Below are positions 7,214 to 22,934 of a stretch of DNA of 22,955 bases, piece by piece; positions within the stretch are counted from its first letter, which is position 1; every line of letters starts with the position of its first letter. The position numbers and the translations under genes are program-made. Location: IMG/VR virus record IMGVR_UViG_3300031368_000015, positions 1 through 22,955 of that record. One strand, 5' to 3'. The notes under the pieces were generated by a model that saw only the letters and a program-made list of their open reading frames with translations, ran no database searches and was not told the DNA's origin. The DNA comes from a virus.

Positions 7214-8077
7214 ATGAATAAAGCACAATTCAATTTAGAGTTGTATCATAAGATGTATCAACTCTATAAAATTTCTGCTGAACAAGGTATCAAATTATAT
7301 GCAGAATCATTAAGTCATCATTTTGAAATTCCAGATCGTGTAGCTAGATACTATTTTTTTATGGTAGAAAATAATTATAATCAAACTACCCAATCTAATA
7401 AGATCCAGGGAGAAAATCGTTTGATTATCCCAGATCTTCATAGTCCATTTGTTAAAAAAGGATTTCTTGAACACTGCGTTCAGGCTTATCATGAATATCA
7501 ATGTACTAAAGTATCATTTTTAGGAGATATCCTAGATAATCATTTTAGTTCATTTTGGAAAACAGATCCAGATGGACTATCAGCAAAAGATGAAATAGAT
7601 TTGGCTATAGAAATTCTTCAACCTTGGTATTCGTCTTTTCCTGAAGCAGAAGTTTGCATTGGAAATCACGACGCCCGGATAAGACGTCAAGCATTTGATG
7701 CTGGCATATCTGAAAAATGGATTAAAAATTATTCTGATGTTATTGAAACTCCTGGATGGATATGGGATGATTATTTTGATCATTTTGATGTACGTTATAT
7801 CCATGGTGATGGACCAGGTGGTGCAACTAATGGAGCTTTCAATAGAATGCTTCATTGGAGAATATCAGTGGTACAAGGACATTTTCATACCAGTTCTTAT
7901 ACTCGATGGTCTGTTTCAGAAAAGGATAGATTATATGCTATGCAATGTGGATGTGGTATGGATTACAAAGTTTACGCTGCAGCATATGGTAAAAAATCTC
8001 AAAAGAAACCAGTAATTGAATGTGCCGTTATTTTAGATAATGGTAGAATCCCAATTCACCTCCCAATGTATTTATAA
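7214..8077 (+). CDS. Calcineurin-like metallophosphoesterase (lambda NinI-like family)
   Basis: All five motifs are present: DLH, GDxxD, GNHD, HG and GHFH. Confidence 0.9.
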   Translation: MNKAQFNLELYHKMYQLYKISAEQGIKLYAESLSHHFEIPDRVARYYFFMVENNYNQTTQSNKIQGENRLIIPDLHSPFVKKGFLEHCVQAYHEYQCTKVSFLGDILDNHFSSFWKTDPDGLSAKDEIDLAIEILQPWYSSFPEAEVCIGNHDARIRRQAFDAGISEKWIKNYSDVIETPGWIWDDYFDHFDVRYIHGDGPGGATNGAFNRMLHWRISVVQGHFHTSSYTRWSVSEKDRLYAMQCGCGMDYKVYAAAYGKKSQKKPVIECAVILDNGRIPIHLPMYL

Positions 8078-8087
8078 TCAGACAGTT

Positions 8088-8588
8088 ATGAGTAACGTTA
8101 ATAAAGCTATAAAGATGGCGGCGGAGAAGGGATTTTCTATTGATAAAGAAGGAAATGTATTCCGTCATGGTAGTCCAATAAAGCCCTGTTTTCATAAAGG
8201 TTATAAGCACTTTAGTGTAGTCATTAGTCCAAACAAACAGATCAGTGTTCCCTTTCATCGATTTCAGGGATATCATAAATTTGGATTAAAGATATTTAAA
8301 CCTGAGATAGCTGTACGTCATCTTAATGGGGATAGAACTGATAACTCATGGAATAACATGGGTATAGGTACACACCTAGACAACATGAGGGATATTCCTA
8401 AAGAGGCTAGGTTACAGGTTGCTACAAATGCATCCCATACCAGATGGCCAAATCAACCAGATGCAGCAGCTATGCTACTAGATAAAGAAAATGGGATGCA
8501 TTGGAAAGACATAGCCAAAAAATACGGTACCAGCAGATCAAATACACATCGTTTATTGGTGAAGCAGCGTAATTTAAAATCATTCTAA
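8088..8588 (+). CDS. HNH homing-endonuclease-like protein with C-terminal HTH
   Basis: VRHLNGDRTDNSWNNMGIGTHLDN is an HNH motif, and the C-terminal WKDIAKKYGTSRSNTHRL is an HTH. Start moved to ATG 8088 to avoid a 38-nt overlap. Confidence 0.85.
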   Translation: MSNVNKAIKMAAEKGFSIDKEGNVFRHGSPIKPCFHKGYKHFSVVISPNKQISVPFHRFQGYHKFGLKIFKPEIAVRHLNGDRTDNSWNNMGIGTHLDNMRDIPKEARLQVATNASHTRWPNQPDAAAMLLDKENGMHWKDIAKKYGTSRSNTHRLLVKQRNLKSF

Positions 8589-8593
8589 ATAAG
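8577..8593 (+). promoter_or_regulatory. Phage-specific motif copy 2 (AAATCATTCTAAATAAG), likely tmRNA promoter
   Basis: Near-identical to the other four copies and directly upstream of the tmRNA acceptor piece. Confidence 0.55.
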
Positions 8594-8599
8594 TATTGG

Positions 8600-8699
8600 G
8601 TATTGCAATATCCAATATTTTATTGTAGCTTTACAGAAGTTCTTTGAGATCGATATTTCGAAACATGTTTGGACCGGGGTTCGTTGCCCCGCATCTCCA
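8600..8699 (+). ncRNA. ssrA: tmRNA acceptor piece (3' part of a permuted two-piece tmRNA); 5' end approximate
   Basis: CATGTTTG-GAC-CGGGG-TTCGTTG-CCCCG-CATCTCC-A gives the H2a 3' strand, the GAC linker, a 5-bp T-stem with 7-nt loop, the acceptor 3' strand and discriminator A. CCA is not fully encoded. Confidence 0.85.
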
Positions 8700-8724
8700 C
8701 AAAAAGTCCAACCGGTAGCCAAAA

Positions 8725-8855
8725 GGGGTGAGGATAAGATCACACACCCGGGCGTTTATTCGGCTCTGGCCTTGGGGGATAATACGACGCCGTGCAAAAA
8801 TGTCTATGCTGAGGAGCATGAAGATATACCGCCGGAAGATTCGTATTTTCCCCCC
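8725..8855 (+). ncRNA. Structured RNA domain inside the tmRNA intervening segment (function unknown)
   Basis: Closing stem GGGG-T-GAGGATA / TATTTTC-C-CCCC plus GATC/GATT. It encloses hairpins at 8751-8791 (GGCGT/ACGCC, TTATTC/GGATAA) and 8801-8826 (TGTCT/AGATA, ATGCT/AGCAT). Several G.U pairs. Confidence 0.5.
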
Positions 8856-8892
8856 CTGGTACAGGGGAGTAAGTTACAAGATTGTAAGATAT

Positions 8893-9039
8893 GGGGATGA
8901 ATGTTTTGACAGCATGAGAGTAGGGTATCAGGAGAGGACGAAGCTAATTAACCGGCACAAAGGTTATACAACTAATTCCTCAAGGCCGCTTCCAGGAAGC
9001 AGCTTAGCTAGGAGCCTGAGCCCCTTCGGGGGTTTCAGG
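8893..9039 (+). ncRNA. ssrA: tmRNA coding piece (5' tRNA-like strand plus tag reading frame)
   Basis: GGGGATG pairs with CATCTCC (8692-8698), including G3.U70 (Ala identity). A D-loop-like AATGTTTTGA follows, then CAGCATG, which pairs with CATGTTTG. The tag ORF follows, and the piece ends in a cUUCGg hairpin (9015-9039). Confidence 0.85.
8954..9007 (+). other. tmRNA proteolysis-tag reading frame (A)GTKVIQLIPQGRFQEAA*
   Basis: Resume context ATTAACC|GGC keeps U-5, A-4, R-3 and Y-1. There are 17 codons ending GCA GCT TAG. Confidence 0.8.
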
Positions 9040-9053
9040 TAAGTTTCTAAAAC

Positions 9054-9566
9054 GTGATAAAAGATTTGAAACCAATAACTGGATTTGAAAATTATTTAAT
9101 AGATTGTTCAGGTAAAGTATTTAGCCTAAAAAGCAACAAATACCTGAAGCCCGGTGACAACGGGCGCGGATATTTTAAGGTAAATTTATGGCGAAATGGA
9201 AGGCAGTATACTATAACTATTCATAGATTAGTTGCTCAGGCTTTTCTCCCTAATCCTGATAACAAATCATTTATTAACCACAAAGACGGAAATAAACTCA
9301 ACAATACGGTATCTAATTTAGAGTGGGTGACGCCAGCTGAGAATAATCAACATGCTTATGATATAGGCTTAAGAAAATGGTCACCGAATTCGGGCCGAAA
9401 ACTTATTCCTATTAATGTATACGATTATAAAACTGGCGAGTTTAAATCTACCCATGATTCTATAAGTGAAGCTATTGAGCTTTATGATTTAAATTATGGC
9501 GGTGTATGGAGGATGTTACATGGAAAATCGAAACACACAAAAAAATTAACTCTCGCTAAAATATAA
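9054..9566 (+). CDS. NUMOD4-HNH homing endonuclease (I-HmuI-like)
   Basis: GTG start. N-terminal KPITGFENYLIDCSGKVFS (NUMOD4-like), HRLVAQAF...INHKDGNKLNNTVSNLEWVTPAEN (HNH), and a C-terminal NUMOD1-like HDSISEA. Confidence 0.92.
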   Translation: MIKDLKPITGFENYLIDCSGKVFSLKSNKYLKPGDNGRGYFKVNLWRNGRQYTITIHRLVAQAFLPNPDNKSFINHKDGNKLNNTVSNLEWVTPAENNQHAYDIGLRKWSPNSGRKLIPINVYDYKTGEFKSTHDSISEAIELYDLNYGGVWRMLHGKSKHTKKLTLAKI

Positions 9567-22682: not shown

Positions 22683-22892
22683 ATGATGAAAGTAAGAAAT
22701 GTAATTAGTGTCATTTTGATTATTTTAGGATGGTTAGCTTTAATTTTATGGATAGCCTGGTCAGACTGGAAAGATTTTAGCGCAGCTATAGAGAAGTTCA
22801 AAGATGTGTTTTTCAATGTACTAACCGGATTCACAGGCGTGATTGTAATAATAGGATTTATTATGGGCGGCGTGTTAATTTGGAAAGATTAG
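22683..22892 (+). CDS. Two-TM membrane protein
   Basis: Two hydrophobic stretches flank a charged loop. Confidence 0.75.
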   Translation: MMKVRNVISVILIILGWLALILWIAWSDWKDFSAAIEKFKDVFFNVLTGFTGVIVIIGFIMGGVLIWKD

Positions 22893-22934
22893 CTATTATG
22901 GTACTGGGCCTGGGTTCGACTCCCAGGCATAGCA
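22892..22934 (+). ncRNA. Mini-tRNA (43 nt)
   Basis: GCTAT-TATGGTACTGG-GCCTGGG-TTCGACT-CCCAGGC-ATAGC-A-CAA: a 12-bp coaxial helix (5+7). Confidence 0.7.

Follow-up and report, generated by a model that had tools for sequence, protein, structure and literature searches.

The window analyzed here is a 22,955-nucleotide (nt) stretch of DNA from an uncultured salt-marsh phage (IMG/VR virus record IMGVR_UViG_3300031368_000015, positions 1-22,955, estimated to be 28% complete). Its positions 8639-9040 very probably hold a circularly permuted, two-piece gene for transfer-messenger RNA (tmRNA), the RNA that frees stalled ribosomes, in a phage most likely infecting Bacteroidota (Flavobacteriia-like hosts). 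The tmRNA gene is real and under selection, as its fold is maintained by covariation and its tag reading frame is kept in related phages. An earlier note on this DNA, made from its letters, had proposed a permuted tmRNA gene in a phage. That proposal is borne out by a full-length match to the Rfam family of permuted tmRNAs, by covariation, and by a gene content that includes a portal protein, a large terminase, several HNH endonuclease genes and a tRNA cluster.

Every part of the gene lies on the plus strand. The acceptor piece (8639-8699), placed by alignment to the Rfam family tmRNA_permuted (RF04321) and by covariation counts, is 61 nt long before CCA addition. It opens with the 3' strands of the H2 helices (H2d, 8639-8645; H2b, 8652-8658; H2a, 8664-8667 and 8669-8671) and continues into a tRNA-like 3' half read directly as GAC-CGGGG-TTCGTTG-CCCCG-CATCTCC-A (8672-8699). 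This half comprises the T stem (8675-8679/8687-8691), the T-loop UUCGUUG (8680-8686), the acceptor 3' strand CAUCUCC (8692-8698) and the discriminator A8699, after which CCA is unencoded, the next letters being ACAA. Beyond an intervening segment, or spacer, of 193 nt (8700-8892), the coding piece (8893-9040, about 147 nt) begins with the acceptor 5' strand GGGGAUG (8893-8899), likewise read from the sequence, followed by a D-loop analogue, AAUGUUUUGA, and the 5' strands of H2a, H2b and H2d up to 8939. A 14-nt linker containing UAAC (8940-8953) separates H2d from the GGC resume codon, where a tag reading frame starts (8954-9007) that runs to a TAG stop (9005-9007). The acceptor strands form seven of seven pairs with G3.U70, and the H2 strands are collinear, C8910-G8912 pairing with U8669-G8671, C8913-G8916 with C8664-G8667, and GGGUAUC (8923-8929) with GAUAUUU (8652-8658). 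The earlier note had read the 3' half, the GGGGATG start at 8893, the acceptor pairs with G3.U70 and the collinear H2 strands in just this way, but its outermost H2 pairing, GGAGA/TCTTT, fits less well than AGAGGAC/GUUCUUU (8933-8939/8639-8645). It had also argued that the gene is permuted rather than one-piece on the ground that no second 3' end follows the tag. We likewise found no second T-arm or acceptor 3' half downstream of the tag, and the one-piece model RF00023 scores 16.7 bits at the locus on the 3' half alone, with no full one-piece gene.

The coding piece is as short and as free of pk2-pk4 as had been remarked, and the first pseudoknot, pk1, is missing too: none of pk1 and pk2-pk4 occurs in the window coding piece, and the hairpin that RF04321 carries at the place of pk1 is unmatched. 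There is no room for pk1, because only 14 nt lie between the last H2 pair and the resume codon. In the window G1 is 61 nt away from that codon, versus about 84-87 nt in one-piece Bacteroidota-type tmRNAs. After the tag, minimum-free-energy folding predicts a hairpin with a C(UUCG)G tetraloop (9015-9039). Its outer stem covaries (CCUGA/UCAGG vs CCCGGG/CCCGGG vs CCUGGGG/CCCCAGG), it fails a simple terminator pattern, and it may be either the equivalent of H5 or a structure at the transcript end.

Relatives carrying the locus were recovered by portal-protein and DNA-pattern searches. They are L122, a complete 83-kb genome with terminal repeats; L124; L123, which is identical to L120 and L121; L152, a more distant relative of the window; L094, truncated by a contig end; and metagenome copies of these. 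Overall identity of the locus among these kin is about 70%, and the locus is syntenic in them, flanked by two phage genes; in the window it lies between a metallophosphoesterase gene and a gene of unknown function. A blastn search of the locus against 50,697 phage records gave no match. The public runs listed for 8560-9060 number 24, all of them DNA-type metagenomes, mostly from salt marsh, with no RNA run among them.

Covariation was assessed in a five-sequence alignment with the structure written out and 47 pairs counted, the controls being alignments with the pairing partners slid by 1-3 columns and 500 shuffles. Paired cells amounted to 92.4%, compared with 34-52% when the partners were slid, and 15 pairs were changed on both sides, compared with 0-4; the observed pairing and double-change values were reached by 0 of the 500 shuffles. 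The double-changed pairs include three in the acceptor stem, four in the T stem and four in the outer part of H2a. L122, with the acceptor stem GGGGUGU/ACACUCC, shows three double changes there, and all seven acceptor pairs form in all five sequences, with G3.U70 invariant. H2b and H2d are kept in three to four of the five sequences and are re-registered in L123 and L152. Compensatory changes in the acceptor and H2 stems of related phages, to which the earlier note had looked as a check, are thus observed.

Model searches agree. Over the whole window, RF04321 matches 8639-9007(+) at 48.6 bits (E 5.7e-07) across the full model (positions 1-213), the curated gathering cut-off being 47 bits, and four close kin match it end to end at 43.5-45.8 bits. 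The older alpha, beta and cyano families RF01849, RF01850 and RF01851 are merged in RF04321 (PMC11915505). These three models had been suggested for an Infernal check alongside the general tmRNA model; in the window they give 17.9, 17.0 and 12.7 bits against cut-offs of 50, 84 and 70 bits, with only the tRNA-like core matching, and 11-21 bits overall. The window tmRNA falls outside the alpha, beta and cyano lineages. ARAGORN, the other program suggested, gave a divided answer: at default settings it misses the native window copy, but at a relaxed threshold it reports a permuted tmRNA in the window with the same tag as read from the frame. By default it calls the L122 homologue a permuted tmRNA, and with the pieces re-joined in silico it calls L122 and L152 standard tmRNAs; the re-joined window copy is called a tmRNA only at -ps90 (90% stringency), and the re-joined L124 and L123 receive no call. 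With ARAGORN defaults or the Rfam cut-off, genes of this kind are missed or only just detected.

The tag frame is also conserved. In the window it reads (A)GTKVIQLIPQGRFQEAA*, with the U-5/A-4 context before GGC at 8954 and an AA-stop end, both of which had been noticed at the outset, and it is kept in all five family members through an in-frame 3-nt indel and synonymous changes. The kin tags are GENVKLIPHGNFKEAA in L122, GENVIQMETVQLKVAA in L124, GEKVIALPDRWLKVAA in L123 and GKTINMVERPQELRLAA in L152, and each kin frame has UAAC(N) just before it and a covarying hairpin after it. The window tag is longer than the Bacteroidota host tag GENNYALAA and dissimilar to it, so one might speculate that the fate of phage-tagged proteins differs from that under host tagging.

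The window gene belongs to a large, widespread phage lineage. Its coding piece is closest to those of other permuted tmRNAs from metagenomic phages that resume at a Gly codon, and the pattern GGGGNUG..UUUGACAG..UAANNGGC occurs at 118 or more IMG/VR loci, 117 of which were parsed. At least 72 of the parsed copies are permuted, with the resume codon 56-72 nt from G1 and spacers of 16-308 nt. They carry 49 different tags, mostly of 14-16 residues and of the type GKTIxMF...LR[AL][AV]A. At least 31 others are one-piece genes, in which, with a single exception, the resume codon lies 74-87 nt from G1. All four marks of the permuted lineage are present in the window: the permuted order, UUUGACAG, a UAAnnGGC resume region 56-72 nt from G1, and an unencoded CCA. 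The idea of the permutation as a singular event of one phage, implicit in the earlier note, has accordingly to be given up.

A member of this lineage is found in an isolated phage. In Maribacter phage Panino (PP540027), RF04321 matches 27590-27798 at 62.2 bits, the pk1-less architecture and the motifs are as in the window, and the tag is GKVMNVSFAPTVRQFA; the lineage therefore occurs in a phage with a known Flavobacteriia host. Panino and the IMG/VR lineage share with the window a GUUCAUUGA-type 5' end of the acceptor piece, UUUGACAG, a GAGAACG-type H2 strand, a UAACUGG resume region and a long tag of Gly-Lys type, and the window gene belongs to that family. The spacers differ, being 40 nt in Panino and 16-308 nt with unrelated content in others, as does the aberrant T-loop of the window's subclade. 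Particular to the window's phage group is a structured spacer RNA, and in the window also the non-canonical T-loop and flanking HNH insertions. The Panino paper names just 'one tmRNA (SsrA) gene' (PMC11590407); the annotated tmRNA feature (PP540027.1, 27557-27889) overlaps two annotated tRNA genes at its ends. RF04321 had no match in Cellulophaga phage phi14:2, Tenacibaculum phage Larrie, Flavobacterium phage immuto or Microcystis phage Mel-JY01, and our literature search found no paper on a permuted tmRNA lineage of Bacteroidota or their phages.

Two-piece tmRNAs of Alphaproteobacteria, a betaproteobacterial lineage and cyanobacteria were reportedly described by Keiler et al. in 2000 and by Sharkady and Williams in 2004, and to our knowledge permuted tmRNA has been described only in three bacterial lineages and in mitochondria. 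A comparison of the window gene with the alpha, beta and cyano types shows the same order of acceptor piece, intervening segment and coding piece, a tRNA-like domain built from two RNAs, G3.U70, H2 pairing, an Ala-Ala tag end and a full-length RF04321 match. In contrast to them, the window gene has no pseudoknots, resumes at Gly after UAAC, has a coding piece of only about 147 nt, carries UUUGACAG instead of UUCGAC and leaves CCA unencoded. Two-piece tmRNAs have been published for OM43 phage Melnitz, pelagimyophages and cyanophages, with 53 unique two-piece forms among isolate phage genomes (Buchholz et al. 2022, PMC9004378). As in the Melnitz type, the window has a phage-borne permuted ssrA near or among tRNA and small genes, with no phage SmpB. 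The Melnitz copy is nevertheless of the alphaproteobacterial type (it scores 113 bits, encodes CCA, has UUCGAC and a pseudoknot region, and its tag is ANDNYVPVDYALAA), whereas the window copy is of another type and its phage is unrelated.

The earlier note had also suggested an independent permutation in a phage, Bacteroidota normally carrying a one-piece ssrA. The premise stands: among Bacteroidia genomes, 36 of 41 have a one-piece tmRNA by RF00023, and RF04321 has no match in the 151 sampled, in agreement with the phylum table of the tmRNA database paper (PMC11915505). Independent permutation itself is made plausible by shared Bacteroidota signatures. With one-piece Bacteroidia tmRNA the window shares the 5' domain GGGGYYGAYNGGUUUUGACAGC, the 3' strand UGUUUGGAC, a UAAnnGGCGAA resume region, a Gly first codon and the encoding of only the first C of CCA, while differing from its continuous gene of about 365-405 nt, its pk1-pk4 and its 9-10-residue tag (GENNYALAA and the like). 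We compared signatures between 31 one-piece Bacteroidia tmRNAs and 42 permuted tmRNAs with an Ala-starting tag (alpha-/cyano-like). UUGACA instead of UCGAC occurs in 24/31 of the former and 3/42 of the latter, and a WAAnnGGY resume region in 20/31 and 0/42; CCA is encoded in 2/31 and 28/42. In the window family, UUUUGACAG is found in 5/5 (by inspection) and WAAnnGGY in 5/5, and CCA is encoded in 0/5.

The competing account traces the lineage to an alpha-, beta- or cyano-type gene that was permuted beforehand and was passed between phages, and that then lost its pseudoknots and came to resemble Bacteroidota tmRNA by convergence while adapting to host SmpB, RNase P and alanyl-tRNA synthetase (AlaRS). 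Such transfer has a basis, as marine phages often carry two-piece tmRNAs of alphaproteobacterial type, which can also turn up in phages that infect other hosts (Melnitz; PMC9004378). No clade is resolved by a maximum-likelihood tree built on about 70 columns of the tRNA-like domain, and a position weight matrix class test, biased by the selection of its references by acceptor sequence, is ambiguous for the five family members. On the other hand, the lineage-specific models give just 11-21 bits, and the three independent characters above match Bacteroidia, not the alpha-/cyano-like permuted types with Ala-starting tags. The Gly-tag permuted relatives score 20-50 bits better under the Bacteroidia profile than under the alpha-/cyano-permuted profiles, and L415, the closest outgroup among the matches listed (tag GKVRQLIPAIQHRIAA, cf. 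QLIP in the window), has a 5' domain, GGGGCUGACUGGUUUUGACAGC, that is practically the Bacteroidia consensus. We therefore consider descent from a permuted ancestor of the known types unlikely, though still a serious contender. The comparisons give better support to a Bacteroidota one-piece gene as the ancestor, and so to a further independent permutation, a reading that is probable though unproven.

Several points weigh against the identification of the window gene as a functional permuted tmRNA. The kin RF04321 scores fall just under the Rfam cut-off, default ARAGORN misses the window copy, and pk1, which is found in nearly all tmRNAs, is absent. The candidate -7 box of the window, TAGCTTTA, departs from TAnnTTTG, the consensus Bacteroidota -7 promoter element, and the host is one that we infer, most phage proteins having no informative match among isolated phages. 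The window T-loop UUCGUUG, already flagged as non-canonical, has U instead of A58 and so departs from the canonical UUCRANY loop, and the D-loop analogue AAUGUUUUGA has one G instead of GG. The loops of L123 (CUCGUUA) and L124 (either 6 nt long or closed by a G.U pair) deviate as well. With such T-loops and a reduced D-loop GG, the elbow recognized by RNase P, the CCA-adding enzyme and SmpB may be impaired in the subclade of the window, L124 and L123. T-loops are canonical in L122, L152 and L094, and GG is also kept in L122 and L152.

These deviations raise the alternative that the gene of the window, L124 and L123 is a non-tagging tmRNA relative, either a decaying copy or a decoy or competitor that sequesters host SmpB, AlaRS or ribosomes. 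In that case it would resemble the tmRNA-like RNA without a coding sequence (CDS) of mycobacteriophage DS6A, which inhibits host tmRNA and sets a precedent for a tag-less tmRNA-like phage RNA (PMC11915505). The non-canonical T-loops and the loss of the D-loop GG fall in exactly these three of the five members, and ARAGORN fails on the re-joined L124 and L123. However, the same three keep every stem by compensatory change, plus G3.U70, and keep an open tag frame with AA-stop at about 70% overall identity, neither of which is expected of a decaying or tag-less RNA. We accordingly hold this alternative to be improbable. That the 3' half is an attachment-site remnant of a host ssrA, with the downstream 5' half pairing by chance, would suit an RF00023 signal confined to the 3' half (16.7 bits) and the common use of tmRNA 3' ends as integration sites, carried by many temperate elements, but it is refuted by the kept tag frame and by the fact that, in five phages, the 3' half covaries with the 5' half, the H2 helices and the tag, and it fits poorly with a locus syntenic between two phage genes and a window in which no integrase is seen.

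The core of the spacer (8702-8859) is a structured RNA of about 150 nt in two domains that is better conserved than the tmRNA itself, and the best-conserved blocks of the whole locus lie in the spacer, including 22 invariant nt at 8759-8780. RNAalifold on five spacer sequences gives 36 pairs, 19 of them with compensatory change. Domain A (AAG-U-CCA-A-CCGG with UCGG-CUC-UGG-C-CUU) stacks three helices that enclose a variable hairpin. In domain B, a G-run/C-run closes a long hairpin whose apical loop is GAGG(A). L152 changes CCA/UGG to CCU/AGG and a G.U to U.G in the otherwise invariant domain A. Permissive Rfam searches of the spacer alone returned only chance matches to miRNA-precursor-like hairpins, and a likeness to RNase P (AAAGUCC, GAGGA) was dropped, as no RNase P family scored. 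A covariance model of the spacer, R1, was run on about 200 viral loci, 100 of them from other lineage members, and matched this phage group alone; it had no match in 151 Bacteroidia genomes. The 22-nt invariant motif was absent from 185,579 species genomes; in metagenomes it occurs in the same phages and in one apparently unrelated 230-kb contig (OKEX01000001.1, 1802-1823), an exact copy that the R1 model does not match and that could be chance or a fragment. Two open reading frames (ORFs) across the spacer, 8728-9042(+) and 8631-8819(-), were rejected as genes because kin spacer lengths differ by non-multiples of three, and their conserved blocks lack third-position variation. A pairing of the spacer GGGGGAU with the acceptor 3' strand was rejected as well, not being kept in L122.

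As to its role, we would tentatively regard the spacer RNA as a separate phage small RNA liberated by tRNA-processing cuts, at somewhat less than even confidence; that it is a scaffold controlling maturation of the two pieces is only slightly less likely, and a self-cleaving ribozyme is an unsupported possibility. In L152 (3720-4234, minus strand) the 229-nt spacer also holds a tRNA-Met(CAU)-like gene with an odd D-arm, directly 5' of the tmRNA 5' end, and in L047, a more distant lineage member with the tag GEQVEMAMAA, a complete tRNA lies inside the spacer. Both tRNAs fit the spacer as a cargo slot. The combined picture, a pk1-less lineage that arose by an independent, phage-only permutation of a Bacteroidota gene and whose spacer was taken over by a new structured RNA (maturation guide or separate small RNA), is one that we can advance only provisionally, with the chances a little against all of it holding together.

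Two HNH endonuclease ORFs border the locus in the window. The upstream one (8040-8588, plus strand) matches Pfam HNH_3 and PHROG 59, and the downstream one (9054-9566, plus strand) matches NUMOD4 and HNH_3 and is I-HmuI-like. Both are absent from L122, L124 and L123, where the neighboring genes abut the tmRNA locus, with the metallophosphoesterase gene upstream; hence the two arrived recently, as insertions bracketing a conserved RNA gene. A candidate Bacteroidota-type promoter lies at 8603-8633 on the plus strand, with TTGC at 8603-8606, a 19-nt gap and the -7 box at 8626-8633, which ends 5 nt before the first paired base of the window RNA. Kin have perfect boxes, TAATTTTG in L122 and L152, TAACTTTG in L124 and the metagenome contig L148, and TATCTTTG in L094, that end 5-6 nt before the first paired base. 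TAnnTTTG is moderately enriched in the window (37 occurrences vs 24.7 +/- 5 expected). L148 and the window agree at every position of the spacer and the coding piece, while the L148 promoter and the 5' end of the L148 acceptor piece differ from window 8603-8651, with TAACTTTG for TAGCTTTA and an extra T as in L122; this mosaic suggests recombination within the locus.

The host is probably a member of the Bacteroidota, as had been supposed, given the metallophosphoesterase matches, the TAnnTTTG boxes of the kin and the same tmRNA type in Maribacter phage Panino. The best matches of the metallophosphoesterase (42-44% identity) are in phages of Cellulophaga, Nonlabens, Flavobacterium and Tenacibaculum. 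Among isolated phages, no match was found for the portal or for two further window proteins, and matches of a RyR-domain protein and the terminase were uninformative as to the host. Elsewhere in the window, the best weak match to the one-piece model (22824-22927, 20.3 bits) has no ARAGORN tRNA and is probably a mini-tRNA element. Bacteroidota genomes G004, G007 and G008 contain tandem 39-40-nt weak tmRNA-model matches of about 18 bits, about 100 nt apart (e.g., G007:C1:2588590-2588628 and 2588687-2588725; G008:C1:4164148-4164390), which may be host counterparts of acceptor-plus-T-arm mini-tRNAs.

Established tmRNA biology allows a proposal for how the gene would work, from transcription and processing to charging, tagging and the fate of tagged proteins. 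A single transcript would start about 6 nt after the TAnnTTTG-type promoter, and in it the upstream acceptor piece would pair with the downstream coding piece through the 7-bp acceptor stem with G3.U70 and four H2 helices. Host tRNA-maturation enzymes would cut after A8699, by an RNase Z-type or an endo/exo route, followed by CCA addition, and RNase P would cut before G8893, releasing the 193-nt spacer and freeing the CCA end and G1. The mature acceptor piece would be about 64 nt long, ending ...CUCCACCA. The two-piece RNA would then be charged with alanine via G3.U70, bind SmpB and enter stalled ribosomes, where translation would resume at GGC 8954 and add a 17-residue tag ending in Ala-Ala, so that tagged proteins would be expected to end ...AGTKVIQLIPQGRFQEAA. 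No SmpB gene was found in the window or in the complete 83-kb kin genome, and SmpB would therefore have to come from the host.

If this account is true, a phage-only, pseudoknot-free lineage derived from Bacteroidota tmRNA adds another independent permutation event to the history of this RNA, and a tmRNA without any pseudoknot and with a long non-host tag can serve a virus. With pieces of about 61 and 147 nt and no pk1, the gene would be a natural minimal tmRNA on which to test what trans-translation needs. The conserved, folded spacer RNA would mean that a permuted gene can house a second RNA product in the segment it discards, one that RNase P and the 3'-end machinery would excise for free. 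Finally, the long non-host tags, conserved in type across the lineage, suggest that these phages use tagging for their own ends, beyond restoring a host function.

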